Shown in pieces: positions 1 through 13,017 of a DNA stretch of 13,017 nt. The number at the start of each line of letters is the position of its first letter. Position 1 is the stretch's first letter. Position numbers and translations under genes: made by a program. The notes under the pieces were generated by a model. That model saw only the letters and a list, made by a program, of their open reading frames with translations. It was not told the DNA's origin and made no database searches. The stretch is from a virus. Lineage: Duplodnaviria; Heunggongvirae; Uroviricota; Caudoviricetes. The stretch covers positions 1 to 13,017 of IMG/VR virus record IMGVR_UViG_2698536418_000004; one strand, written 5' to 3'.

Positions 1-14
1 CGGATATCCTGCAT
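1..14 (-). CDS. L: 5' end of a second copy of minor tail protein L (start codon plus 4 codons; rest lies off the left edge)
   Basis: Reverse complement of 1-14 reads ATG CAG GAT ATC CG (M Q D I R), the same start as the L-derived ORF at 1335, and overlaps the stop of the M copy at 14-16. Positions 1-13 align with 1322-1334. Confidence 0.5.
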
Positions 15-343
15 CAGTTCACCACCTGTTCAAACTCTGCGCTGAACTCAACACGCAGCATACTGACCCGCGACGACCATTTTGCGCAGGTCACCTTTAT
101 CTGCCGGTAGCCATAAGGCGGCGTCCACAGAAAGGCCTTCCAGCCCCCGTGCTCAGCCAGAAACGACTCCAGCGCCGCGGCCTCCCAACGGGGAACAGAA
201 AGCGTCACGCTGTACGTTTTCAGGTCAGTGTTCAGCCCGGCAGGCGCTCGCTGGGAATAGCCATCACCAAAGCGCACCTTTCTTACGGAAGGGGCAGAAG
301 CCACATCCATACCGGGTTTCACTTTCCAGCGGAAGGTTTTCAT
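14..343 (-). CDS. M: minor tail protein M (second, diverged copy inside the duplicated unit)
   Basis: 109-aa ORF, same length as lambda gpM and near-identical to my recollection of it (MKTFRWKVKPGMDV..., ...SRVSMLRVEFSAEFEQVVN). Differs from the copy at 1335-1664 at 9 of 109 residues. Start overlaps the stop of the upstream ORF. Confidence 0.9.
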   Translation of the reverse strand: MKTFRWKVKPGMDVASAPSVRKVRFGDGYSQRAPAGLNTDLKTYSVTLSVPRWEAAALESFLAEHGGWKAFLWTPPYGYRQIKVTCAKWSSRVSMLRVEFSAEFEQVVN

Positions 344-1335
344 CGTCCACCTCCGGAGAACAGACCACCATCGCGCATCTGCCCGGTCACAACATCCATT
401 GCCGCCTTACGGGCTACGTCATAAACAGCCTTCAGTGCCTGTGGCCCTATCTGACCGTTCGTGCCGTCGTTGTTAATCACCACATGGTTATTCTGCTCAA
501 ACGTCCCGGACGCCTGCGACCGGCTGTCCGCCATGCTGCCCGGTGTACCGACATAACCGCCGGTGGCATAGCCGCGCATCAGCCGGTAGAGATTCCCCAC
601 GCCAATCCGTCTGGTTGCCTCCTTCGTGAAGACGAATTCACCGCGGTGAACAATTCCCGCTGGCTCATATTTGCCGCCGGTTCCCGTAAATCCTCCGGTT
701 GCAAAATGGAATTTCGCCGCAGCTGCCTGAATGGCTGTACCGCCTGATGCGGATGCGCCGCCACCAACAGCCCCGCCAATGGCGCTACCGATACTCCCGA
801 CAATCCCCACCATTGCCTGCTTAAGCAGAATTTCTGTCATCATGGACAGCACGGAACGGGTGAAGCTGCGCCAGTTCTGCTCACTGCCGGTCAGCATCGC
901 AGCGCTCAGTTCGCTGCACTGCTCGATGCGCCAGCGGCTGATCACCTCCTGCTCCGGATCGGCGTAACTGTTTCCGTTGACGAAGTTCACCGCATCCAGA
1001 AAACGGGCGTAAACCTTACGCCGGACCACCGTTCCGCCGACCAGACTCTGCATATCTTCCGCCATCCCGGTGACCATACCGTACAGGTTAGAAACCGTCA
1101 GCGTGGGGCGCGTACTGGTGCCTTTGCCATTCAGTTCAAAACCGCTCCCCTGAATGGGATACGGCTGATACTGTCGCCCCTGCCAGGTGACCGGCTCACC
1201 TTTTTCGTTCTGCTCATTACAGAAAAAATAACGTTCTCCACCGACCTCTGTCAGGTCGATTTCCCAGAGCACCACGCTGGCCGACTGCTCCGCACGGGTG
1301 CATTCATTCAGTGTTTCCTGCCGGATATCCTGCAT
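340..1335 (-). CDS. in-frame chimera: N-terminal 145 codons of tail-tip protein L fused to C-terminal 186 codons of tape measure protein H
   Basis: Residues 1-145 (MQDIRQETLNECTRAEQSASVVLWEIDL ... RWRIEQCSELSA) match the lambda gpL N-terminus. From residue 146 (AMLTGSEQNWRSFTRSVLSMMTEILLKQAMVGIVG ... MRDGGLFSGGGR) the sequence is the C-terminal tail of gpH, as in the intact H gene at 1661-2221. Nucleotide junction lies between 900 and 901. The Cys-rich C-terminal part of gpL is absent. Confidence 0.8.
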   Translation of the reverse strand: MQDIRQETLNECTRAEQSASVVLWEIDLTEVGGERYFFCNEQNEKGEPVTWQGRQYQPYPIQGSGFELNGKGTSTRPTLTVSNLYGMVTGMAEDMQSLVGGTVVRRKVYARFLDAVNFVNGNSYADPEQEVISRWRIEQCSELSAAMLTGSEQNWRSFTRSVLSMMTEILLKQAMVGIVGSIGSAIGGAVGGGASASGGTAIQAAAAKFHFATGGFTGTGGKYEPAGIVHRGEFVFTKEATRRIGVGNLYRLMRGYATGGYVGTPGSMADSRSQASGTFEQNNHVVINNDGTNGQIGPQALKAVYDVARKAAMDVVTGQMRDGGLFSGGGR

Positions 1336-2221: not shown

Positions 2222-4276
2222 TGCCATATTCTGTGCAATACCGTCAAAGGTCTGCGTGGCCACGCTTTTTACCTGCGAAAAACTGTCCGTCGCACTTTCC
2301 GCCCACTCACCCCAGCCGGACTTCATCCCGGCCATCCAGCTTCCACGAAGCTGCTCCTCCGCAGACCAGGTGTTCTTCAGTGCAGATGTGGCCTTCGCCA
2401 GCGCATCCGGATTATCACCGTACACCTCACGAAGGCGCTGCTCTTCCGACTCCCGCTGCGCCTGACGGTCGGTGAGTCCGCGGGCTTTTGCGCTGATTGC
2501 CGCCTGCTTCGCACTCTGCTGCTGTTCAAACCGCGCCGCCTGCTGTGCCAGCTCATTCAGCCGTTTCTGGTGTTCAACCTTGTCGCCCAGCTCAGCCAGC
2601 TGGCGTTTGTACTCCAGCGTCTCTTTCTCATGAGCCAGCAGGGATTTTTCCTGCTCAGATAACTGCCGTTTCGTGGCGGCCTCTTTCAGGACCACATACT
2701 GATTTTCCGCTTTCCATAAATCCCGGCGCTGCTGGCTGATTTTTTCATTCGCACCGCTGTGCTTCTCCAGCGTCCTGAGCTCAGTTTCAAGCGACAGCAT
2801 GGCTGCATGCGCCCGGTCTTCCTGGCGCTCACCGGCAGACACCTTCACACCTGACGGCTTTTTCTGCGTCGATTCATAATCCTTTTTTGCCGACGCCATC
2901 AGCGTGTTGTAATCCGCCTGCAGGATTTTTCCGTCTTTCAGGGCCCTATTCAGCTCTTCCTGCCGGGCGGTATATTTCTCCAGTGGCGTCAGCAGGCGCT
3001 CATACGCCTTCTGCGCCTCTCCGGTATACTTCAGCTGTGACGACTCACGCTCAGCCCTGTCCCTTGCCGCCAGTTCACCGGCTTTTTCCATATCCGACTG
3101 CAGCGTTGCCGCTGCCAGACCCAGACGGGCATTTTCCCGGTCATCCCATGCGCCCTGAAGGTTGGCCCGGAAAGAGGAGGTTTTACCGCGGCGCTGGCTC
3201 CGGCTCTGGTACCACTGCCATTTTTTATCCGCCTCATCAAATGCCTTCTGCGCACTGGCGAGCATATCCGCTGAGGATTCCGGACGACCGATATCCAGGA
3301 TGGCATCCCACATCGATTTGAACGCCTTCCCTGTTTTATCCGCCCAGGTCTCCAGCGTCCCCATGTTTTCTTTCAGGCGACGGGTCTGCTCATCAAAGCC
3401 TTTCGTGGCAATATCGTTCGCCGCCTGCAATGCCCCGGCCTCATCACCGGAACGCTGTAACTGTGCAACATACGCAATCTGCTCTGCCGTCACGTTATGG
3501 AACAGCTTCGCCATCGCAATCAGCCCCGACGTCGGGTCAGTGGTCAGTTTTCCGAAAGCCTCTGCAACCTTGTCCACCTCCACGTCGGATGCAGAAGCAA
3601 AACGCGCGACACTCTGGTTGATGGCATCAAACTGTTCACCACCACGCACACCGGCATTCACCATGGCTGCCAGTGACTCTCTCGCCTGGTTAAACGTCAG
3701 CCCCGCGGCCTGTCCGGCTCTGGAGAGCGTCAGCATGCGATCGGCAGTCAGTCCGGACTGATTACCGGAAAGAACCAGCGTTTTATTAAATTCTGAAAGC
3801 GTGGCGTCGCCCCGGTACCAGGCATACGCCAGCACCCCCGTGGCAGCAGCAAGCGCACCAATTCCGACAGCAGGCAGCGAGACGGCCCCAGCCAGTCCCC
3901 GGAACATGGGGATCATCCCACCGAACGAGTCCTTAATCTGCCCGCCCTGTTGCAGCAGAATTAGCCAGGGATTCTGACCACCGGCAAGCTGCGTGGTCAC
4001 GTCGGTGAACTGCATGGGTAGCGTACGCATGGCCGCTTTATACTGCCCGACGGAAATCCCGGCTTTTTGTGCAGCCAGCGCCTGACGGCTCAGCCCCTGC
4101 TCAACAGCAGCGGCCTGTTTCTTAAAAGACTGGCTGACACGCACGGCCATCAAATCCGCAAGGTCACTGGCTTCACCCAGTTCTTTCTTTACCCGTGCAG
4201 CCTCTTCAGAAAAACGGGTTGAATCCAGTGTAAGAACAGCTGTCAGATCGGCAAAATTACCCGCCATAGCGTACAC
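1661..4276 (-). CDS. H: tail tape measure protein
   Basis: 871-aa ORF (lambda gpH is about 853 aa). Long blocks match remembered gpH: SRQALAAQKAGISVGQYKAAMR, FNKTLVLSGNQSGLTADRML, VEVDKVAEAFGKLTTDPTSGL, KISQQRRDLWKAE, and the Gly-rich C-terminal segment GIVGSIGSAIGGAVGGGASASGG. Start overlaps the end of the T frame. Confidence 0.95.
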   Translation of the reverse strand: MYAMAGNFADLTAVLTLDSTRFSEEAARVKKELGEASDLADLMAVRVSQSFKKQAAAVEQGLSRQALAAQKAGISVGQYKAAMRTLPMQFTDVTTQLAGGQNPWLILLQQGGQIKDSFGGMIPMFRGLAGAVSLPAVGIGALAAATGVLAYAWYRGDATLSEFNKTLVLSGNQSGLTADRMLTLSRAGQAAGLTFNQARESLAAMVNAGVRGGEQFDAINQSVARFASASDVEVDKVAEAFGKLTTDPTSGLIAMAKLFHNVTAEQIAYVAQLQRSGDEAGALQAANDIATKGFDEQTRRLKENMGTLETWADKTGKAFKSMWDAILDIGRPESSADMLASAQKAFDEADKKWQWYQSRSQRRGKTSSFRANLQGAWDDRENARLGLAAATLQSDMEKAGELAARDRAERESSQLKYTGEAQKAYERLLTPLEKYTARQEELNRALKDGKILQADYNTLMASAKKDYESTQKKPSGVKVSAGERQEDRAHAAMLSLETELRTLEKHSGANEKISQQRRDLWKAENQYVVLKEAATKRQLSEQEKSLLAHEKETLEYKRQLAELGDKVEHQKRLNELAQQAARFEQQQSAKQAAISAKARGLTDRQAQRESEEQRLREVYGDNPDALAKATSALKNTWSAEEQLRGSWMAGMKSGWGEWAESATDSFSQVKSVATQTFDGIAQNMAAMLTGSEQNWRSFTRSVLSMMTEILLKQAMVGIVGSIGSAIGGAVGGGASASGGTAIQAAAAKFHFATGGFTGTGGKYEPAGIVHRGEFVFTKEATSRIGVGNLYRLMRGYATGGYVGTPGSLADSRSQASGKFEQNNHVVINNDGTNGQIGPQALKAVYDMARKGARDEIQAQMRDGGLFSGGGR

Positions 4277-5119
4277 CTCCTGGAATTCCCTCAGACACCA
4301 TCATCAGCATGGCTTCATCCTCTGTACTGCTCCGCATGTCATCACTGACCATAACGATTTCCTTCCCGTCAGCCCCAAAGCGGACACCACCAGAAAGACC
4401 TGCCGCTTTCCGCATCAGCATATCGTCCTCATCCGGCATCTCCGTCTGCTCATCATCACGTCGGGGTGCCAGCAGACTGAAATCAGAGGGATGCATATCC
4501 GGATCGCAAAAAAACAGGCTGAGTACAGCGTACGTCAGCCCGGAAAAATGCATATCCAGCTGGGTATCCTGAAAATAATGCGTGCGGTAAAAACGGTGCC
4601 AGTCGGCATATTCGGTGGATGTCATCCCGGCAAGCATGGCGCGCCAGTCGGGTCTCCCCATCTCACGCGCCAGTCTGAGGGCAAAGTTCAGCTCACCGTC
4701 GAAGACTTTCCCGCAGAAAAATCATCATCAGTCAGCGTGTTATTTTTCGCCACTTCAGTAATATCAGTATCCGGACGAACAGCTTCGATCATCCCGGACA
4801 GGCACAACACCACGTCTTCCGCCCGGGCAATGGCATCGGCAGGCCAGGTGGTGAGCACTTCCTGCTCTATCTTCATCACGGCCTCATTCATTGACGGTGA
4901 CTGCGTTTTCTGTGGATGGTTATGCCACAGGGACATCGCCACCAGAAACGCGCCGGTTCTGACAAGATCTTCCACACTCACCTGCAGGTTGCCGCTGGCT
5001 TCAGCCTCTTCTGCCCGCCGTTTCAGGAGGGCAAGATGCTCAATACGCTGCAGCGCAGACAGCTCAGAAAGCGTGACGGATACACCGTTATATTCAAATT
5101 GTTCTGTTTTCAGGAACAT
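4257..5119 (-). CDS. G-T: tail assembly chaperone G-T, made by programmed -1 ribosomal frameshift (G frame 5119 to 4706, then T frame to 4257)
   Basis: Slippery heptamer G GGA AAG on the minus strand at 4712-4706, in the G frame just before the G stop. After a -1 shift the frame reads GKVFDGELNFALRLAREMGRPDWRAMLAGMTSTEYADWHRFY..., matching lambda gpT, and runs open to the stop at 4257. Confidence 0.8.
4688..5119 (-). CDS. G: tail assembly chaperone G
   Basis: 143-aa ORF: MFLKTEQFEYNGVSVTLSELSALQRIEHLAL ... AFLVAMSLWHNHPQKTQSPSMNEAV ... SAGKSSTVS, matching lambda gpG from start to stop. Confidence 0.93.
   Translation of the reverse strand: MFLKTEQFEYNGVSVTLSELSALQRIEHLALLKRRAEEAEASGNLQVSVEDLVRTGAFLVAMSLWHNHPQKTQSPSMNEAVMKIEQEVLTTWPADAIARAEDVVLCLSGMIEAVRPDTDITEVAKNNTLTDDDFSAGKSSTVS
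4706..4712 (-). other. -1 programmed frameshift slippery heptamer (G GGA AAG)
   Basis: Plus strand 4706-4712 is ctttccc, reverse complement gggaaag, read G GGA AAG in the G frame 6 codons before the G stop. Same heptamer and relative position as the lambda G/G-T recoding site. Confidence 0.8.
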
Positions 5120-5137
5120 CGCTTATCTCTCAGCTCT

Positions 5138-5884
5138 TTAGCCACCCGGCACATTATTAACGGTAATTTCAGCCACCGCAGCAAACTGACCATTACCGGA
5201 AATCACAGGGATGCTGACTTTTCCATCCTTAACCCCCGTCACAGTAATCGTCATATCTTTCACGCTAATGGTGGCTTTTGATGGATCGGCGGAAATCGCC
5301 CTGAATGTCTTATCCGTTGCATTTTCCGGTTCCACAGTAACGGTCAGGGTGGTTGTTTTCCCTTTTTCAACCGTACCTGTCGGCGTTACCTTAATCGCAG
5401 TGACCGGCGTAATTTTGCTGCGTTCTTCCGCTACAGAAGGTTTACCCACGTTAGTGACTTTCACCGTGCGGGTGATCACTTCTTTCGCCGTCACGGCCTT
5501 ACCGATACTGCTGACCCAGCCACGAAACACATCCACCGTGCCATTCGGAAAACGGATTTTATAGGCCCGGACATCGCCGCTTTCAAACCAGCCTATAAGC
5601 CCTTTCTGGCCTTCCTCTCCCGGTTTCCAGGCCAGTGTAAAACTGGTATCACCTGCAGATTTCTGTCCCTGCCCGGTCGCGCTCCAGTCCGCGTCTTCAT
5701 CATCCAGGTAGTTATCATCGTAGGATTCTGCCGTCATCTCGCCCGGCGTCAGATCCTTCACCTTAGCCAGTCGCTGCCAGTCATCATCTGACAACGGGTT
5801 GGCATAAGCATCATCCTTGCCGGTGTACACCCATAGTGTGGTGCCGGAACCTTTCACCGGCTCAAGAGGATTTGGTATTGCCAT
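5138..5884 (-). CDS. V: major tail protein with C-terminal Ig-like domain
   Basis: 248-aa ORF with long stretches matching lambda gpV: [103 protein letters not shown]. The C-terminal ~90 aa are Thr/Val-rich, consistent with the Ig-like domain of gpV. Confidence 0.95.
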
Positions 5885-5891
5885 ATCGTCC

Positions 5892-6290
5892 TCACATCTC
5901 GTAGGTAATTTTCCACAGGAGATCTGCCGATCCCCACATCATAAACTCATCATCCCGGCGGTAGTCATACCCCTGAAGATTCATCTTCAGCAGTAACGCA
6001 CTGAGGCCGGGAACCGCCTCCAGCGCAGGAAGGATTTTCTCTTCCATCCACATATCCAGTGCCGAGTCCGGTTCTTTTGCCCTGAGAAAAACTTCAATAT
6101 GCAGTGTCGCCTCCCAGGTCCCCTCATCAACGAACTCGTCAGCAGCAGACGCATCAGTCAGGTAAACAGCAACAGCAGGCAGTTCCTGTTCATCAATAAA
6201 AACCGGGCGGCCGTCAAACCAGCTCACCCGCTCAGAAATATTGTCTTTCAGGGCAGACAGAACTGCCGTCCGTATTTCACGGTGTTTCAT
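5892..6290 (-). CDS. U: tail terminator protein (minor tail protein U)
   Basis: 132-aa ORF (lambda gpU is 131 aa): [38 protein letters not shown] and C-terminal ITYEM match gpU. Confidence 0.93.
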
Positions 6291-6302
6291 ACACCCTCCC
6301 TG

Positions 6303-6932
6303 TCATTTTCTTTTCAGCACCAGGCGTAACTGATGCGTCATGGCTTTCATCATCTGCGCCGGTAATTTTTCCCGGTACATCCGGTCCCGTTCACGTTCAA
6401 AAGTTTCTGCCAGCGGTCCGGCAGTCGGAATTTTCACCACTTCAATCGGCAGACGGTAGCGTTTCGGCCTCCCTTTGCTGTCAGCACCGGTGGACGATGG
6501 TGCCCACGGCATACGCTGCATCACATGCCAGCGTCCGTTAGCCAGCCGGGTGATAAAGGCGTCCGGGATCCGTCTTTTCCCCACAATCAGCACACTGCCG
6601 CCCCCTTTCTTGACCGAACGCTCGCCTTTCTTTCGTCGCTTTCTGCGGGAAAGCCGCACGCTGGCCGTCCCCAGTTTTATGGCGGGCAGATTACCGGTGT
6701 TGATGATGACCTTCGCATAAATCCTGTCTGCGCTAGCCCGTTGCAGGCGGATACGCTCACGGATGAGACGGCGCGGAACCGCCAGCTCCCTGGCAACCGA
6801 AGAGGCCGTTTTCGCGATGATGGACTCCGCCACACGGTTAAGTGTCGTGGCGGCAGCCCGGGGAACGGCACGGCGGTCAATTGCATCCAGATTTTTCATG
6901 GCCTGCGCCAGACCTTTTATTGCCATACTCAT
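6303..6932 (-). CDS. Z: tail completion protein Z-like
   Basis: 209-aa ORF: MAIKGL, VPRAAA, NRVA, LSRRKRRKKGERSVKKGGGSVLIVGKRRIPDAFI, NGRWHVMQR and HQLRLVLKR match remembered lambda gpZ (192 aa). The true start may be the ATG two codons downstream (6926), since lambda gpZ begins MAIKGL. Confidence 0.85.
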   Translation of the reverse strand: MSMAIKGLAQAMKNLDAIDRRAVPRAAATTLNRVAESIIAKTASSVARELAVPRRLIRERIRLQRASADRIYAKVIINTGNLPAIKLGTASVRLSRRKRRKKGERSVKKGGGSVLIVGKRRIPDAFITRLANGRWHVMQRMPWAPSSTGADSKGRPKRYRLPIEVVKIPTAGPLAETFERERDRMYREKLPAQMMKAMTHQLRLVLKRK

Positions 6933-7210
6933 TCCTGTTCGACAAAAATCCGGGGTTTACCGTTGTACGTGTCATAACGGGTCACCGTCAGTGTGCGCCC
7001 CGCAAACACAACAACATCATGACGGGCCGGACGGTACCGGGCTGAAAACACCACCAGTGACAACTGGCTGCCCGAAAGCGCCCCCATCTCCGCGGACTCT
7101 TCCTCCGGCATCACGTCATACACGACGCCGTTAATCTCCGCCTGTTTGCCCATCACCCGAACGGTCGCCCCGTCCATCCGGCAACACATTCGCGTAAACA
7201 GATCAGACAT
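6929..7210 (-). CDS. head-tail attachment protein, FII-like (in prophages often annotated 'ATP-binding sugar transporter-like')
   Basis: 93-aa ORF in the FII position between the head genes and Z. Only a weak resemblance to lambda gpFII in overall size and beta-rich composition; the call rests mainly on synteny. Confidence 0.5.
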   Translation of the reverse strand: MSDLFTRMCCRMDGATVRVMGKQAEINGVVYDVMPEEESAEMGALSGSQLSLVVFSARYRPARHDVVVFAGRTLTVTRYDTYNGKPRIFVEQE

Positions 7211-7529
7211 TGATTTTTACCGCCACAGTGGCGCTGTTTGCAGGAGCATTTTCCCAGGCTACCCCCGCGGCCACCGCACCCTCTGCAGCCAGCTGCACAA
7301 CCCCGTCCTTCAGATAAACCACCGCGCCGGACTGAATGTCGTCAGCAGACTGTTTGGGCAGAAGGAACACGCCTTCGGCAAAACCGTCACCGGCATCACC
7401 GGCAGGAATATCTGTAATGGCCACGGCCACCATACTGCCGACCACCACCGCAGCACCGCTCAGGATGGTCTGATCTCCGGCATTCACCAGTTCAATGGTG
7501 GTACCGTCCTGTACAAAATTTTTCGCCAT
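7203..7529 (-). CDS. small Gly/Ala/Val-rich head protein, possibly a decoration/cement protein (DUF2190-like) or FI-position packaging factor
   Basis: 108-aa ORF directly downstream of the capsid gene with a GGAGA ribosome-binding site about 10 nt upstream of the ATG. Sequence (MAKNFVQDGTTIELVNAGDQTILSGAAVVVGS...) does not match lambda gpD or gpFI from memory; function assigned by position and composition only. Confidence 0.4.
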   Translation of the reverse strand: MAKNFVQDGTTIELVNAGDQTILSGAAVVVGSMVAVAITDIPAGDAGDGFAEGVFLLPKQSADDIQSGAVVYLKDGVVQLAAEGAVAAGVAWENAPANSATVAVKINV

Positions 7530-7544
7530 AATGCTGTTTCTCCG

Positions 7545-7594
7545 GACAGCCCCTGTGGGGCTGTTTTTCAGGCATAAAAAAAGCCCTTTCGGGC
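7545..7594. terminator. pair of GC-rich hairpins with flanking T/A runs in the capsid-to-decoration intergenic gap; possible bidirectional or partial terminator
   Basis: Plus strand 7546-7564 acagcccc-tgt-ggggctgt (8-bp stem) followed by ttttt. 7576-7594 aaaaaaa-gccc-tttc-gggc, which on the minus strand is GCCC-GAAA-GGGC followed by TTTTTTT. This is the only intergenic gap over 20 nt in the window. Confidence 0.4.
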
Positions 7595-7664
7595 AGTGAT
7601 TGTGATAACTCGGTTATCAGGCCACCGACGAACGCACCAGCCCGCGCCAGTCAAGTGGTGCCAC

Positions 7665-9596
7665 TCAGGCATCAATACGGATTTTTGTGGCAATGCCGTC
7701 AGTGGTGAAACCTTCCTGCTGATCAATGTATGGCGTGTCCACACCATCCAGCCAGGCCACTTCAATGGTGTCAGTGCCCTGTGCCGCCGCCAGATACCAG
7801 GTTTTCGGATCTGCCGCATCAAGACGCGCTTCTGCAATCACCTCAGCAAAGTTCTGGATGGGGTTAATGACACCGGCGTTTGCATCCGCCCCTTTCACAC
7901 TGGCCGATTTGATGGTCTGGTTCGCCACCGTCTCCAGTGCCACCGGTACCAGCATAAAGGCCGGACGGATATTCAGGGCGCGATCGCCTTCTTTCTGCAG
8001 GCGCATCATCTGACGGGCCGCATCCAGTCCGGAAACGGAAATCCCACCGGTGGCAATATTTTTGTGATCGGCATGGAACAGCGCCTTACCGTCTGACAGT
8101 TTCGGGTTATCCGTCAGCACCTTGTAAACCAGGTCACCAATCGTTGCCTTCGCCGCACGCCCCATCTTCATCGGCACGTCCACCAGCATATTCAGATCAT
8201 CATTGATAATGGCCTGGCGGGTGATGGAGAAAATCTCCCCGTAAGTGGCCAGTGCAATGGTCTCCTTGCGATCTGAGGTGGTGATGTATTTATACTCCGC
8301 CCCCTCACGAACCTGGCGCAGAGAACCAAAACCGCCCATCCCCACGCGATACGCTGTTTTGAAGTCTGACAGGCGTCCCTTACGGGTCCACTTCTGGAAG
8401 GTTTCTTCTGATTCCTCCCAGCCCTGGATCAGCCCCTTGTTCGACACATCCAGCAGAATATTGCCAAAATCAGAGGTGCTGTGCGTCAGCGCCAGCCCGA
8501 CCATCTGCATGGGGTTATAACTGGCCACCCCAATACCGCGCTCCGTCAGTGACATGCGAGCCCATTCACGCAGGGTCATCCCGTTATAGGCGTTATCCTT
8601 CTCGACATTTTCAAATCCGGCACGGGCCAGCATCGCCTGGCGGATCCCGTCCCCCACAAAATTGCCGTTTCCGGCATAAATATGAGCCGGTGTATTTTTG
8701 TTGGTCGGCGAGGACTCCTTGCCCATTTCATTCAGCAGACGTTCACGGGCCATTTCCAGCGAACAGTCAGGATCAGCCACGCACTGTGCCTGAAGCGTCT
8801 GATAGCGACCGCCGAACATGGCAAACAGATCGTTAATGCCTGACATGCGGGCTTTCTGTTCTGCCATAACGCGGGCGCGAATGGTCGCCTCATCAGACAC
8901 TGCCGGTACCGGTGATGGTTCTGTTACCGCCGGTGCAGGGATTGTCACTGTGGTATCACGCGGGGCACTGTTGTATGGCTGCGTGATCATATTTCGGATG
9001 GATTCCGGCATCTTTTTAAATTCCTCTGTACGTTTTGACTGAATACATGCCATTGCCTTAACGGCTGGCGTCACCTGGTCTGCAAATCCGTGTGCCAGAC
9101 ACTCGGCACCGGACATCCAGGTCTCATCCGCCAGCATGGCGGCAATTTCATCGGTAGTTTTTCCGGTTTTCTGCGCATATACCGGCACCATAACCGACTC
9201 AAGTTTGTCCAGACGTTCGGCATAAGTGCGCATTTTCTCCGCATCACCACCGCTGATCCCCCAGGGTTTATGGATCATCATGAAGGCATTTTCCGGCATA
9301 ATGACCGTGTCACCGGCCATCGCAATCAGGGATGCCATCGAGGCGGCAACGCCATCCACATACACGGTAATGGCCGCACCGTGATTTTTCAGGGCATTAA
9401 AAATGGCGATGCCTTCAAAGACATCGCCACCCGGTGAGTTGATGTGGAGATTAATGTGGGTGATATCACCCAGGGCATTCATATCGCTGACAAACTGCTT
9501 CGCGGTAACTCCCCAGAAACCAATCTCGTCATAAATATAAATATCCGCCTCACCCTGACCACCCGCCTGCATCCTGAACCAGGATTTATTCTTCAT
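7665..9596 (-). CDS. tripartite capsid gene: ClpP-like prohead protease, scaffold-like linker and HK97-fold major capsid domain in one ORF
   Basis: ORF open from 9758, but the ATG at 9596 (MKNKSWFRMQAGG...) overlaps the portal stop (cagcATGaagaaTAA) and is the likely start, giving about 643 aa. N-terminal ~200 aa carry ClpP/S14 motifs: INSPGGDVFEG, VDGVAASMASLIAMAG (catalytic Ser), MIHKPWG (His). The middle is Pro/Ala/Glu-rich. The C-terminal ~340 aa resemble phage major capsid proteins. Start codon choice is uncertain (9596 versus 9572 or upstream). Confidence 0.8.
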   Translation of the reverse strand: MKNKSWFRMQAGGQGEADIYIYDEIGFWGVTAKQFVSDMNALGDITHINLHINSPGGDVFEGIAIFNALKNHGAAITVYVDGVAASMASLIAMAGDTVIMPENAFMMIHKPWGISGGDAEKMRTYAERLDKLESVMVPVYAQKTGKTTDEIAAMLADETWMSGAECLAHGFADQVTPAVKAMACIQSKRTEEFKKMPESIRNMITQPYNSAPRDTTVTIPAPAVTEPSPVPAVSDEATIRARVMAEQKARMSGINDLFAMFGGRYQTLQAQCVADPDCSLEMARERLLNEMGKESSPTNKNTPAHIYAGNGNFVGDGIRQAMLARAGFENVEKDNAYNGMTLREWARMSLTERGIGVASYNPMQMVGLALTHSTSDFGNILLDVSNKGLIQGWEESEETFQKWTRKGRLSDFKTAYRVGMGGFGSLRQVREGAEYKYITTSDRKETIALATYGEIFSITRQAIINDDLNMLVDVPMKMGRAAKATIGDLVYKVLTDNPKLSDGKALFHADHKNIATGGISVSGLDAARQMMRLQKEGDRALNIRPAFMLVPVALETVANQTIKSASVKGADANAGVINPIQNFAEVIAEARLDAADPKTWYLAAAQGTDTIEVAWLDGVDTPYIDQQEGFTTDGIATKIRIDA

Positions 9597-11088
9597 GCTG
9601 GCTGTCGGTGGCCTGCTGACGCTGTTGTTCAGTTCCGGCACTGTTGCCTCCTTTGTCGTTGACGGGGTCAGTATCAAAGACCAGCCCCAGTCTGCTGTTT
9701 TCATCAATTTCAGCCTTGCGGCGACGTTTGACCTCATCCGGATTGCGCCCGCCGGCACGCACCCAGTCAGATTCTGTCGCTACACCACCCCGGATCTGAA
9801 TTCTCCAGGCTTCAGCTTCCTTAACCGGGTCGATCCACGGCATCACCGGACCGGAATACGTCGCGTTATATAGCGTTTTCATCTCCACATCCGCCGGAAT
9901 TTTCAGCAGACCTGCCGCAACCACCATATTCAGCCATGTCCGGTACACCGGACGGGTTACCGCGCCAATAAAACAGTCCTGCAGGATCAGGTAACCATCC
10001 GTGGACTCGACCAGCTCCTGCCGCTGGGCACTGTAGGTGCCGTTATAGTTACGCGCCGCACTGGAAAAACTCAGACGACTGCCCGCTGCCACTGCACGCA
10101 ACTGGCCGTTGCGGAAAGTTTCAAGGTTGGGATTGGGACGGTCTGATTTGACCATGCCGATATCCTCGCCCTTGCGCAAATCGTCATAAATAATACCCGG
10201 GGTGATATGGACTTCCCGGTCGGTTTCTTTGATCCCCGGCTCTTCATAGTCCTGCCCGTCACCTTTACGGATATACAGTCCCAGCGCCGCGGCAATACGC
10301 GCCGCAGTGAGTTCCGCATCCTCATACTCCTTAAGGGCACTGATCCGCATCAGCACCCCCGATAACATGGATGAGCCTCGCGTCTGATGCAGACGACGAG
10401 TGAACTTCAGGTGGATCATTTTTCCGGCAGCGATTTCTTTCGTATCACTCTGCCGGCCGCTGACCGGATAATTTTTATAAACCAGATATTTTTTCGGTCT
10501 TCCCCACTCATCAAGAAAAACCCCCTGATTCAGTCCGGCGGATTCATCAGTGCGCATGGGAACAAAATCCGGCTCCATCGCCTCAAGCCAGAATGGCACT
10601 CCCGCCGTCCGTTCCAGACCGTTTCCCGCACCACTGACCATCTGCGCAAACACTTCACCATCCCGCAGCCAGGTCCGCAGCAGTAAACGTTCAAGCACGG
10701 GACGGGTATACTGCCCTGTCACATCCGGACTCACGGACCACTCAGCCCACAACCGGCGGATATCCGCAGCCAGCTCTGCCGCCATTTCCCCGTTTTTTCG
10801 TAATGGCTGAGGCTCCACAATAATTCCCCTGGCACCAATCACCCGCTCTTCCAGCTTGTCAAACACACCAATCACCAGGTCATGATTGATATCCAGAAAA
10901 CGGGCCTGCTCCCGCAGGGAAACCGCACCGTATTTACTGAGCTGATCAGCAGAGCGATTTTCCCGCCGGGCTTTATGTGTCCGGGTCGGTTTCACCGCCT
11001 CATAGGCCATGATTAACGCCCTTGAACGCAGTCTGGCTGCTTTCCAGCCGGGGGAAAACACGCCTATCACATCATCAATAATTGCCAT
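9586..11088 (-). CDS. portal protein
   Basis: 500-aa ORF between the gpW-like gene and the protease-capsid gene; size and position fit a lambda gpB-type portal. Start overlaps the W stop (TAATG). Confidence 0.85.
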   Translation of the reverse strand: MAIIDDVIGVFSPGWKAARLRSRALIMAYEAVKPTRTHKARRENRSADQLSKYGAVSLREQARFLDINHDLVIGVFDKLEERVIGARGIIVEPQPLRKNGEMAAELAADIRRLWAEWSVSPDVTGQYTRPVLERLLLRTWLRDGEVFAQMVSGAGNGLERTAGVPFWLEAMEPDFVPMRTDESAGLNQGVFLDEWGRPKKYLVYKNYPVSGRQSDTKEIAAGKMIHLKFTRRLHQTRGSSMLSGVLMRISALKEYEDAELTAARIAAALGLYIRKGDGQDYEEPGIKETDREVHITPGIIYDDLRKGEDIGMVKSDRPNPNLETFRNGQLRAVAAGSRLSFSSAARNYNGTYSAQRQELVESTDGYLILQDCFIGAVTRPVYRTWLNMVVAAGLLKIPADVEMKTLYNATYSGPVMPWIDPVKEAEAWRIQIRGGVATESDWVRAGGRNPDEVKRRRKAEIDENSRLGLVFDTDPVNDKGGNSAGTEQQRQQATDSQHEE

Positions 11089-11324
11089 TAAAACCTCGCC
11101 AGTTTAAATCCTGGTTTTCCCCGCCTGCGGCTCACCATCGCGGCAAGCCTGCGTTCCCACTCCTGACGTCCGGCGCGGATCTGAGAAAGGCTTTCCAGCG
11201 TCAGTTGCTGTCCGTTGAAGGTGACAGACTTCCCCTCCAGTACGGCCATTTCCGCTTCACGGTACCGCTGTATCATTTCTCTGGCTTCTTCTGTGCTCAC
11301 AACCAGCCTCCTGATGTTATCCAT
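11088..11324 (-). CDS. W: head completion / head-tail joining protein, gpW-like
   Basis: 78-aa ORF between terminase and portal. C-terminus RRRGKPGFKLARF resembles the lambda gpW C-terminus (RRRGPAGFYV); size and position match gpW. Confidence 0.75.
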   Translation of the reverse strand: MDNIRRLVVSTEEAREMIQRYREAEMAVLEGKSVTFNGQQLTLESLSQIRAGRQEWERRLAAMVSRRRGKPGFKLARF

Positions 11325-13017
11325 GGATTATCTTCCGCACGCTCCGTCCGCAGTTTTTTCTTCCGGCGACGGCGTTTTTCTGCCCCGGCCGTCAGTTCCG
11401 GGGATACCGTTTCACCAGAACGCTCCTGCGGGAAGACGAGCCACGTTTCCCGCTGTGCCCAGTCCGGTGCGGAGGGCCAGCGGATCTTTTCGTAACCATG
11501 CAGAACGGCAAGCGCATCCGCATAAACCAGCAGGTCAAACGCCTCGTTAGCTCCCCTGCCCGGTTTTCGCCATTTTCCGTCACTGCCGCGCTCTTCATAG
11601 GTCAGCTCATCGTAAAACCATCGCCCCAGCCAGTCGGGAAAGTGGATATAGTTCGGCCCTGGTGTGTCACGCCACAGGGCATTATTTACACGGTCCTTAA
11701 ACGCATCCGTCTGAACCAGCCACAGCGCGACATCGCCACTGGCTCTGGCACGGCGGGCACTTCTGCCGGTATTATCCGGGAAGGTACGGTTAATCAGCCT
11801 GTCACGGCGAAGTCCATCCCCCTTGAACAGAAACACCCTGTTGCCCAGTCCGTCACTCCGGCAACGACGCCAGAAACGATAGGCGTTATCTGTCACCCCG
11901 GCTTCCCCTCCCGTATCCACCGCCATGGCCATCAGACGCATGCGCACATCCGGATCAGAAGCCAGCGGCCATGTTTTATGGAACACATCCGTCAGCAACA
12001 AATCCCAGTCCTCCGGATATGCCGCCGGATCAACCGGCAGACTTTCACCGTTGGGACTGCAGCGCAGTGAATGCCGGATGTTATAGCGATCAACAATCCA
12101 GCGTTCCCCCTGCTCTCCGTATCCGGTGATCTGCACAACAAAACGGCGATTTTTACCGCCCTGTACGTCAACCGTTGCCTCAATAAAACGCACACCATCC
12201 GGCACAGATCGCCGGGGAAACGGCTCGGCACGCTGTTCAAGCAGTTCACTTTTACGCTGTTCCGTGGCTGAACGGGGCAGATAGGGGCGTCCGATATCGG
12301 TGTTCACCACCGCTTTCAGGGTCTCTTCACTGCCGGTTCGCTCATACTCTTCTTCTGCCGCCAGCAGTTTAAAAATCAGTTGTTCCCAGGTCTGAAACGC
12401 CGCAGCCGGCCCCTCCATCCAGAATGACGCAATCCGGGAATTTCGTGGCGTTCCGGTGATACTGCCGTCCGCCACCGCCCGTTCACCTTCACGAAGCCAG
12501 ATCCCTTTGTTATTCAGTTCGCGTTTCTGCTCAGGGGCAATCAGCCCGCGACAATGCGGACACATCAGACGGGCAGCCTGACCGGCAGCCACAAAATCCG
12601 GGTTATTCCGGTATCCGGTCATGTTATCCATCACCGGCTGAAAATATTCCCCGCAGTGCGGACACGGCCAGTACCACCGGCGGCGGTCTCCCCGGTTATA
12701 CAGTGACAGGATCCCCGTTGTTGGCGGTGCCTCATGTGCGCCGCCACAGCGCCATTTGGTGTCAGTGATATCCCGCCCCGGCGAACTCTCGACCAGGGTC
12801 ATCCCCGAGGACATAAAGGTGGTGGTACGCTTTGATGCCAGGGTGAAGGCATCCCCTTCCCCGTCCACGTTTTCAGGGAAACGGTCATAATCCGTCAGCG
12901 CCACACGACGGTAATCCGTAAGCGTCGTCTCAGCACCGTCTGGCAGATCCTGAAATTCCTGAGAGAATAGTGGACACCAAATATGGTGGACGCTATCCAT
13001 GAAATCATTAACCGCAG
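11297..13017 (-). CDS. A: terminase large subunit (GpA family), 5'-truncated by the window edge
   Basis: ORF open to the right edge with no stop upstream of the first in-window Met. WPCPHCGEYFQP and a following CPHC motif resemble the paired-Cys region I recall in lambda gpA. About 570 codons visible; the N-terminal ATPase segment must lie beyond 13017. Confidence 0.85.
   Translation of the reverse strand, partial: AVNDFMDSVHHIWCPLFSQEFQDLPDGAETTLTDYRRVALTDYDRFPENVDGEGDAFTLASKRTTTFMSSGMTLVESSPGRDITDTKWRCGGAHEAPPTTGILSLYNRGDRRRWYWPCPHCGEYFQPVMDNMTGYRNNPDFVAAGQAARLMCPHCRGLIAPEQKRELNNKGIWLREGERAVADGSITGTPRNSRIASFWMEGPAAAFQTWEQLIFKLLAAEEEYERTGSEETLKAVVNTDIGRPYLPRSATEQRKSELLEQRAEPFPRRSVPDGVRFIEATVDVQGGKNRRFVVQITGYGEQGERWIVDRYNIRHSLRCSPNGESLPVDPAAYPEDWDLLLTDVFHKTWPLASDPDVRMRLMAMAVDTGGEAGVTDNAYRFWRRCRSDGLGNRVFLFKGDGLRRDRLINRTFPDNTGRSARRARASGDVALWLVQTDAFKDRVNNALWRDTPGPNYIHFPDWLGRWFYDELTYEERGSDGKWRKPGRGANEAFDLLVYADALAVLHGYEKIRWPSAPDWAQRETWLVFPQERSGETVSPELTAGAEKRRRRKKKLRTERAEDNPWITSGGWL

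Follow-up and report, generated by a model that had tools for sequence, protein, structure and literature searches.

A truncated allele of the Gifsy-2-type protease/scaffold/major capsid fusion gene in an apparently defective Escherichia coli prophage

The stretch of DNA analysed here (the window, 13,017 nucleotides) carries a gene in which a ClpP-like prohead protease, a scaffold-like segment and a major capsid protein are encoded as one chain. This tripartite head gene belongs to an ordinary, already catalogued family, and there is nothing new in its architecture. The window copy is a member of that family by descent, but it is a truncated allele. We consider it very probable that the gene belongs to the Gifsy-2-type tripartite head family and that this copy is a dead allele, decaying under relaxed selection within a small lineage of E. 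coli.

A preliminary description, made from the letters of the window, had placed the gene at 7665-9596 with the strand unstated. An ORF with these ends does exist, on the minus strand, running from an ATG at 9596-9594 to a TGA at 7667-7665 (643 codons), and the mechanical ORF of the gene reaches upstream to a GTG at 9758. The true start is probably the GTG at 9641, 15 codons upstream of the ATG at 9596, which gives a gene of 658 codons (7665..9641, minus strand) with a premature TGA end. By direct reading, a Shine-Dalgarno sequence, AAGGAGG, lies at 9647..9653 on the same strand, 5 nt upstream of this GTG (9641-9639), and homologues begin at the position of the GTG as MPELN... or MPK.... In many of them the residue aligned to the Met1 encoded by ATG 9596 is Leu, Pro or Ala, so this ATG cannot be their start. 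Both products are found exactly in public records, the 643-aa form as WP_162773579.1 (RefSeq) and the GTG-start form as CTW04689.1 (658 aa), and the annotated lengths for the same gene vary (643, 648, 656, 659, 671 and 674 aa), the start calls being inconsistent. Internal initiation of the Nu3 type was also considered and rejected: an AAGG is present 2 nt before the invariant Met182 and a GAGG 11 nt before the invariant Met196, neither of them convincing. Scanning of positions 7400-9800 returned promoter-like sites only at chance level, and listed no terminator-like site at the end of the fusion gene. A 4-bp hairpin with U7, missed by the terminator scan, follows the ancestral stop codon of the gene.

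At the N-terminus, residues 17-176 (counted from the ATG; 9069..9548, minus strand) form a ClpP-like head-maturation protease domain of the S14 type. The three motifs first noticed in the sequence were confirmed (INSPGG, residues 52-57; AASMAS, 84-89; MIHKPWG, 107-113), and the profile search that had been proposed for this half matched Pfam CLP_protease at residues 30-176 far beyond chance (E=1.4e-36). The NCBIfam model NF045542 (Clp_rel_HeadMat) matches residues 17-175 with 220.9 bits, against a cutoff of 120. In alignments with the solved ClpP structures 6hwm and 1y7o, Ser86 (9341-9339) and His109 (9272-9270) fall on the catalytic Ser and His of ClpP and Glu158 falls on its Asp; S86, H109 and E158 are invariant across the 30 sequences of our family alignment.

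Behind the protease comes a hypervariable linker, approximately residues 205-236 (8889..8984, minus strand), delimited by composition and alignment, which is the sole indel-rich, hypervariable block of the family alignment (columns 233-272). It had been described as rich in Pro, Ala and Glu. The first two hold, but Glu does not: the linker is rich in Pro, Thr, Ala and Val, and residues 201-240 contain seven Pro, six Thr, five Ala, four Val and two Glu. It is followed by a conserved helical segment, approximately residues 237-292 (8721..8888, minus strand), with helices at 236-259, 266-274 and 280-290 in both AlphaFold models, whose mean pLDDT is only 35-36; the segment alone reaches a pLDDT of 68-80, in the second model only. 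This segment may represent a scaffolding or delta-like domain, and the equivalent part of the MD8 protein gp5 has been proposed as scaffolding (PMC8508860).

The remainder of the chain, from about residue 306 to residue 643 (7668..8681, minus strand), is a Mu-gpT-like major capsid protein with its C-terminal end missing. Pfam Phage_capsid_4 matches residues 369-642 (E=2.8e-50), as the preliminary description had anticipated for this half, and Mu-like_gpT also matches the C-terminal part (E=6e-10). The Phage_capsid_4 match is in frame and covers positions 7-246 of the 262 of the profile, so that the capsid domain encoded here is incomplete at its end. In a profile comparison with solved capsid proteins, the C-terminal part matched those of JBD30 (8rkc/8rkx, E=1.6e-6) and Mu (9jod, E=5e-5), matches confined to residues 151-289 of a query fragment of 348 residues. 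The two AlphaFold2 models (mean pLDDT 35.2 and 36.4) were built from alignments that were too shallow, of 29-30 sequences that are 75-97% identical to the first one, which was the window protein in one case and a full-length homologue in the other. Because these pLDDT values are unusably low, it is the homology to the solved capsid proteins of Mu and JBD30 that supports an HK97 fold of the C-terminal half; we infer this fold, and likewise the place of the lost tail in it, from those relatives and from a published model of a homologue with 57% identity. The JBD30 capsid protein, gp38, adopts the canonical HK97 fold and bears minor capsid proteins in trimers (PMC11445458), and a Phyre2/HHpred model of MD8 gp5 based on HK97 extends to residue 690 of 693 (PMC8508860).

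That these parts follow one another in one gene, in the order protease, linker/scaffold, capsid, is confirmed by NF045540, by PHROG 133 and by both Pfam domains. NF045540 matches with 968 bits (cutoff 475), aligning residues 17-643 to positions 2-637 of its 652, and PHROG 133 matches with 1117 bits; PGAP calls near-identical copies 'ClpP-like prohead protease/major capsid protein fusion protein'. The existence of these curated families also agrees with the earlier view that the gene is of the Gifsy-2 type and has precedents. The same gene is carried by 2,070 of 5,426 complete E. coli genomes, with up to 6 copies per genome, and occurs as a single fused gene in the propagated phages mEp460, mEp043, Ayreon and phi458, as well as in the Pseudomonas phages CF140a/LESphi3. 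In total, 7,568 proteins are related to the window protein at E<=1e-30; an uninterrupted single frame is kept in Escherichia, Salmonella, Citrobacter, Kosakonia and Pseudomonas phages, and full-length fusions were found down to about 36% identity. After clustering at 50%, both halves are spanned by one protein in 133 of the 149 representatives (36-80% identity), and at least 80% of the query is covered in 79 phage records, which disposes of the suggestion that a sequencing error might have fused two genes. The tripartite architecture is thus genuine and already known, as its presence in the 2,070 genomes, in propagated phages and in fusions of about 36% identity indicates; judged from this conservation, the fusion is also ancient.

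The copy in the window departs from its family at the 3' end. The stop codon TGA at 7665..7667 (minus strand) stands where relatives have GGA (Gly), base 7667 being A on the plus strand and C in the relatives. Comparison with these relatives identifies it as a premature stop, not the normal end of the family, which removes the conserved last 16 residues. The orphaned 3' remnant is still present in frame, as 15 codons (VAPLDWRGLVRSSVA) and the ancestral stop at 7619-7617 (7617..7664, minus strand). A 61-mer with the TGA had no exact match among 459 E. coli records or 8 phage records, and the otherwise identical 61-mer with GGA is found at 100% identity in 449 E. coli records. Every complete homologue has the tail, in which G644, V645, P647, D649, R651 and G652 are invariant across 29 sequences, and all 140 distant representatives that reach the stop site continue for 14-22 residues further. 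Consistently, the Pfam and NCBIfam profiles extend some 15-16 positions beyond the end of the window protein. Apart from the stop, the allele shows no amino-acid change relative to the full-length form. It was found on 5 contigs from at least four draft assemblies in two accession series, and the otherwise identical full-length form on 730 contigs; the nearest genome differs by 4 SNPs in 10.8 kb. The TGA allele is real, seen as it is across several draft assemblies: four TGA-bearing contigs from four assemblies (series JHSN/JHRP and CYBY/CYCB) are identical over a shared 7.6 kb. We also considered programmed read-through of the TGA, and rejected it because no relative has a stop at 7665-7667.

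The neighbouring genes belong to the same head module. Directly upstream lies a lambda-family portal gene (9586..11088, minus strand; Pfam Phage_portal_2, E=2.8e-80, and the annotation of a near-identical locus), whose 3' end overlaps the 5' end of the fusion gene, and directly downstream a head decoration (cement) protein gene (7203..7529, minus strand; Pfam Phage_cement_2, E=5.2e-19). The fusion gene, between portal and cement genes, is the sole capsid gene of the module: no other capsid gene was found by Pfam among ten neighbouring ORFs, nor between the portal and tail genes. The terminase large-subunit gene (11297..12922, minus strand) lacks its 5' end and matches the GpA_ATPase profile at positions 127-247 only. 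It is adjoined by part of an IS66-family element (12923-13017). In the PGAP annotation of an identical locus the terminase is a pseudogene without its N-terminus, beside IS66-family genes, and genomes with an intact terminase match the window only up to 12922. All four contigs with the TGA allele begin at the same base. With its terminase gene cut by an IS element and its capsid gene truncated, this E. coli prophage is, as read from its genes, defective. At the left end of the window, an apparent duplication of tail genes was rejected as a biological rearrangement, being an assembly join, at which an N is present (position 901).

The following course of events would account for these observations. 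In the intact family, translation would start at the GTG behind AAGGAGG and yield a chain of about 674 residues, with an N-terminal ClpP-fold serine protease using Ser86 and His109 (ATG numbering), a variable Pro/Thr/Ala-rich linker followed by the conserved helical scaffold-like segment, and some 360 C-terminal residues forming a Mu-gpT-like, HK97-fold major capsid protein. On a lambda-type portal, the capsid parts would build a procapsid that encloses protease and scaffold. The protease would then cleave off itself and the scaffold, with a cut expected between about residues 290 and 310; the shell would expand, and trimers of the downstream decoration protein would cement it. For the intact fusion, the processing and assembly steps were reportedly shown in the Gifsy-2 study of Effantin and colleagues in 2010. 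In the window copy, a G-to-T change would have converted the Gly codon GGA to TGA, with loss of the last 16 residues of the capsid domain. Terminase function may have been lost to the IS insertion before the nonsense mutation arose, an order suggested solely by the nearest relative, in which the IS is present and the TGA is not. The truncated protein is presumably non-functional. Autoproteolytic release of the capsid, which had been expected from the fusion, probably describes the family and not a working process at this locus, since the copy carries the TGA and the terminase gene is cut by the IS.

Could the gene nevertheless be intact and working, with its natural end at 7665, as it was first delimited? 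The ORF is long, every domain is recognisable and the 643-aa product (WP_162773579.1) is listed in RefSeq like any ordinary protein, but we regard this as very improbable: no other examined sequence ends at 7665, the 449 E. coli records have GGA and none has TGA, the distant representatives all continue into a tail with six invariant residues, the profiles overrun the end of the protein, and the prophage also has a disrupted terminase gene. There is similarly little probability that an error of sequencing or assembly produced the TGA and that the actual gene is full length. The window is indeed a 13-kb draft-assembly contig (CYCB01000064.1), and it has at least one artefact of assembly in another place, the join at position 901; yet the same TGA is found in four contigs from four assemblies of both accession series, and its site lies outside any homopolymer run. 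That the fusion itself is artificial, a protease-scaffold gene and a capsid gene joined through a missed stop or a mid-gene frameshift, is next to impossible. Older annotations label the whole gene only 'protease/scaffold protein', and in many phages the ClpP-like head protease has a gene of its own, but the single frame is conserved in thousands of sequences across several host genera, propagated phages have the same single gene and the curated models are full length.

A different reading accepts the truncation and gives it a purpose: the shortened polyprotein would be a selected, dominant-negative poison subunit that blocks the capsids of related Gifsy-2-type prophages or of superinfecting phages. 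If true, this would amount to an interference or defence function derived from a prophage. Co-assembly with the subunits of related phages is conceivable, since an E. coli genome can hold up to 6 copies of the gene, and the stop is the only change in the protein; but a mutation of very recent origin (4 SNPs in 10.8 kb relative to the nearest genome) would leave the protein just as free of further changes, the allele is rare (5 contigs versus 730), late-gene expression from a prophage needs induction, and we found no evidence of selection. We therefore give this reading hardly any credence, and retain the view that the gene is a dead allele of a Gifsy-2-type family.

The tripartite gene illustrates the extent to which phages can pack head assembly into a single chain, as known since the work on Gifsy-2, and the finding matters little beyond annotation. 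There, two points deserve attention. The labels 'Clp protease ClpP' or 'protease/scaffold', which many copies carry in the databases, hide a capsid gene; and a gene that looks complete to profiles may be a dead allele, as was seen here only by comparing the last 16 codons with those of relatives. Truncation and IS-cut terminase would together mark the prophage as non-inducible, a point to bear in mind when asking whether prophages of this kind can still form particles in pathogenic E. coli.

Gifsy-2 is the closest parallel. Its genes are described as fused (PMC12315714), and a trimeric cementing protein sits at its 3-fold axes (PMC8538268). As in the window, the order is ClpP-like protease, linker/scaffold and capsid, between lambda-type portal and cement genes, and Salmonella homologues are 75% identical to the window protein over the full length; in contrast to Gifsy-2, the window copy stops 16 residues early and the terminase of its prophage is disrupted. 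MD8 gp5 likewise combines protease, scaffold and capsid in a single gene (PMC8508860). The gene of the MD8-like phage vB_Pae_CF140a is 57% identical to the window protein over its full length, and Mu gpT is the nearest capsid protein of solved structure to both MD8 gp5 and the window protein; MD8 gp5 differs in coming from another host genus and in being complete, at 693 aa. Mu gpT and JBD30 gp38 are homologous in sequence to the C-terminal half (E=1.6e-6 to 5e-5), but they are stand-alone proteins of about 305 residues, with separate protease and scaffold genes. In HK97, the scaffold (delta) is fused to the N-terminus of the HK97-fold capsid protein and is removed in the procapsid by the phage protease (PMC8508860). 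The HK97 protease, gp4, is a separate gene product of another fold family, and HK97 lacks a decoration protein, whereas the window protease is ClpP-like and lies on the same chain as the capsid. With lambda the window shares the gene neighbourhood (terminase gpA, portal and gpZ/U/V/G/T tail genes), a protease and scaffold in one frame, and an encoded trimeric decoration protein. In lambda the capsid gene E is separate, and Nu3 is made by internal initiation within C. This C/Nu3/E arrangement is absent from the window, which has no separate capsid gene: its capsid protein is Mu-gpT-like (Phage_capsid_4) and, unlike that of lambda, fused to the protease and scaffold.

Positions 7665-9596 hold a minus-strand ORF of 643 codons, running from ATG 9596 to TGA 7667-7665; the preliminary description had read an ORF here without giving its strand. 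The plus-strand translation of 7665-9596 is interrupted by stops throughout, and the mechanical ORF reaches farther upstream, to GTG 9758. The motifs that had been claimed were found as described: INSPGG (residues 52-57), AASMAS (84-89) and MIHKPWG (107-113). Profile searches matched both halves of the protein, with the N-terminal ClpP-like protease corresponding to Pfam CLP_protease (residues 30-176, E=1.4e-36) and the C-terminal capsid half to Phage_capsid_4 (residues 369-642, E=2.8e-50); Mu-like_gpT gave a weaker Pfam match (E=6e-10). Over its full length the protein matched PHROG 133 (1117 bits), and it scored 968 bits against NCBIfam NF045540, 'ClpP-like prohead protease/major capsid protein fusion protein', for which the curated cutoff is 475. 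The fusion architecture is confirmed, but it is already known and curated, and our additions are limited to the strand, the start codon, the composition of the linker and the recognition that this copy is truncated and its prophage decaying.

ATG 9596 is not preceded by a Shine-Dalgarno sequence. By contrast, GTG 9641, 15 codons upstream, has AAGGAGG in front with a 5-nt spacer, its position is a start common to many homologues (MPELN..., MPK...), and many homologues carry Leu, Pro or Ala where the window protein has Met1. For these reasons GTG 9641 is likely to be the true start, and it is the one used in GenBank CTW04689.1, CTW48341.1 and CTW65510.1. Counted from it, the protein here is 658 residues long, and intact relatives have 674. 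If GTG 9641 is the true start, the gene shares 56 bases (9586-9641) with the portal gene's 3' end, read in a different frame.

The preliminary description had considered that a sequencing error might have fused two genes artificially. Thousands of homologues and working phages speak against this. A search of 5.8 billion proteins gave 4,113 relatives with E<=1e-10 among 8,000 candidates scored, and the 120 listed, which come from Escherichia, Salmonella, Citrobacter, Kosakonia and other genera, are fusions 640-690 residues long, bar a few partial sequences. When 1.84 billion cluster representatives were searched exhaustively with HMMER, 7,568 proteins had E<=1e-30; the protease and capsid halves were both spanned by 133 of the 149 best cluster representatives (36-80% identity). 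At least 80% of the window protein was covered in 79 phage records, including the Pseudomonas phages vB_Pae_CF140a and LESphi3 (57% identity), while some 940 other phage records mostly matched through a stand-alone ClpP-like head protease only. At the DNA level the gene shares 99.5% identity with Enterobacteria phage CP-1639 and with several Stx2a-converting phages, and about 78% with the propagated phages mEp460, Ayreon, Tritos, phi458, cdtI and others. A match was present in 2,070 of 5,426 complete E. coli genomes, in up to 6 copies per genome, and PGAP gives the E. coli copies the NF045540 name. The 133 representatives spanning both halves and the 79 phage records indicate that the fusion is an old, conserved and functional architecture, ruling out a sequencing artefact.

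Annotation of this gene is uneven. It appears as 'Clp protease ClpP', 'peptidase S14', 'protease/scaffold protein', 'head-tail preconnector protein Nu3', 'major capsid protein' or 'terminase protein', so its capsid function is often hidden, and inconsistent start calls give it lengths of 643, 648, 656, 659, 671 or 674 aa. In VT1-Sakai, the Stx1 phage of E. coli O157:H7 Sakai (AP000400.1, 23287-26531), IS629 splits the same fusion gene, and the annotation there shows several small ORFs instead, a separate case in which this gene was inactivated independently.

Within the protein, Ser86 (GVAASMAS) and His109 (MMIHKPWG) align with the catalytic Ser and His of solved ClpP structures, and Glu158 with the ClpP Asp position; all three are invariant in 30 of 30 aligned sequences. 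The linker (about residues 205-236) is the only hypervariable, indel-rich block of the family alignment. It had been called Pro/Ala/Glu-rich, of which Pro and Ala hold but Glu does not (2 Glu in residues 201-240), Thr and Val being abundant as well. Directly after it comes a conserved helical segment (about residues 237-292), likely to be the scaffold judging from its position, from analogy with the HK97 delta domain and from the analysis of the phage MD8 protein. Two AlphaFold2 runs gave a mean pLDDT of 35-36 overall, and this segment was the sole region with some confidence (68-80 in the second model). From about residue 306 (IYAGNGNF...) onward lies the highly conserved capsid part. Alone, the C-terminal half matches the solved capsid proteins of phage Mu (9jod, E=1.7e-5) and JBD30 (gp38; 8rkc/8rkx), and a 10-sequence profile of it gave E=1.6e-6 for JBD30 and E=5e-5 for Mu.

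Does the gene end naturally at 7665? All comparisons contradict an intact gene with its end there. In FDAARGOS_1059, the nearest complete E. coli genome, all 643 residues are identical, GGA stands in place of the TGA, and the gene is 16 codons longer (GVAPLDWRGLVRSSVA). The tail is present in every complete homologue among the 120 listed, and 29 sequences share its residues G644, V645, P647, D649, R651 and G652 without exception. All 140 distant representatives reaching the last residues run 14-22 residues past the end of the window protein, 101 of them by exactly 16, and the Pfam and NCBIfam profiles extend some 15-16 positions beyond it. The 61-mer centred on the TGA had no exact match in 459 E. 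coli and 8 phage records: each listed match was one base off, and the GGA version was 100% identical in 449 records. Judged by sequence comparison, the stop at 7667-7665 is premature. The lost segment is probably part of the capsid fold and no floppy appendix, since the HK97-based model of MD8 gp5 reaches residue 690 of 693.

A sequencing error is contradicted by the finding of the TGA in four assemblies. The window equals contig CYCB01000064.1 (13,017 bp; assembly GCA_001283405.1) except at base 901, and the truncated protein is public as WP_162773579.1. The truncated allele is in 5 contigs; the otherwise identical full-length protein is in 730. Its presence in 4 of 4 contigs retrieved, in at least four assemblies and in two accession series, argues that the TGA is genuine, an allele carried by a small lineage, and no one-off error. 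A role of the truncated protein as a selected 'poison subunit' is conceivable but very unlikely, and nothing supports it.

On the minus strand at 7547-7594, just after the ancestral stop, lies a hairpin, GCCC-GAAA-GGGC, followed by seven U, and a second, stronger one, CAGCCCC-ACA-GGGGCUG, precedes the cement-protein gene. The 96-nt stretch has a folding z of -2.9. This region may be a partial terminator that sets how strongly the capsid gene is expressed relative to the genes downstream; a consensus terminator scan misses the first hairpin because its stem has only 4 pairs.

The gene sits in a lambda-like morphogenesis module in the order terminase gpA, small ORF, portal, fusion gene, Phage_cement_2 decoration protein, PF13856 'Gifsy-2' family protein, gpZ, gpU, tail tube protein, gpG, gpT and tape measure protein, and the module has no other capsid gene. 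The terminase large-subunit gene (11297-12922) lacks its 5' end and covers only positions 127-247 of the GpA_ATPase profile. An identical locus is a pseudogene according to PGAP and adjoins IS66-family genes; in genomes with an intact terminase the match ends at 12922, and in the nearest complete genome the counterpart of the window's last ~95 bases is the end of an IS66-family element. All four retrieved contigs carrying the TGA share the same first base, which lies inside the IS boundary. Across 2222-13017 there are 4 SNPs relative to FDAARGOS_1059, one being the nonsense change. That genome has the IS but retains GGA. The most economical account is an IS insertion that killed the prophage, followed by the nonsense mutation under relaxed selection.

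Towards its other end the window departs from the nearest complete genome most often: of 75 differences, 71 lie at 966-2021 (gpL 5' part, gpM and tape-measure 3' end), leaving 4 SNPs in the remaining 10.8 kb. This stretch may be a mosaic patch swapped with another lambdoid prophage, or part of the assembly problem at 901. There, window 1-900 repeats 1322-2221 (gpM and tape-measure 3' end) in direct orientation at 93% identity, and the join creates a chimeric ORF (340..1335, minus strand) of gpL N-terminus and tape-measure C-terminus. The junction is absent from complete E. coli genomes, sister assemblies have different arrangements, and base 901 is N in the public record; it is most likely an assembly artefact across repeats of several lambdoid prophages.

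The steps of the family's mechanism were reportedly shown in the Gifsy-2 study, whose primary paper is reported to show procapsids and capsids in models built from HK97 gp5 and lambda gpD. One chain would hold protease, scaffold and capsid protein; its capsid parts would assemble on the portal into a procapsid enclosing protease and scaffold, and the ClpP-like Ser/His protease would then cut off the N-terminal ~300 residues. The conservation pattern can only place the putative cleavage site between about residues 290 and 310. The shell would expand, and trimers of the decoration protein encoded downstream would cement it. If expressed, the window copy would give a chain missing a conserved end element of its capsid fold, in a prophage predicted to be unable to package DNA.

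Comparable proteins are known from other systems. Fusion of the Gifsy-2 genes is mentioned, citing 2010 work, in PMC12315714. The fold of JBD30 gp38 is the canonical HK97 one (PMC11445458). Pseudomonas phage MD8 gp5 is the same tripartite single gene, of 693 residues, with its protease part modelled on ClpP and residues 456-690 on the HK97 procapsid; by HHpred, the closest relative is the Mu capsid protein (PMC8508860). CF140a, at 57% identity to the window protein, belongs to the MD8-like phages.
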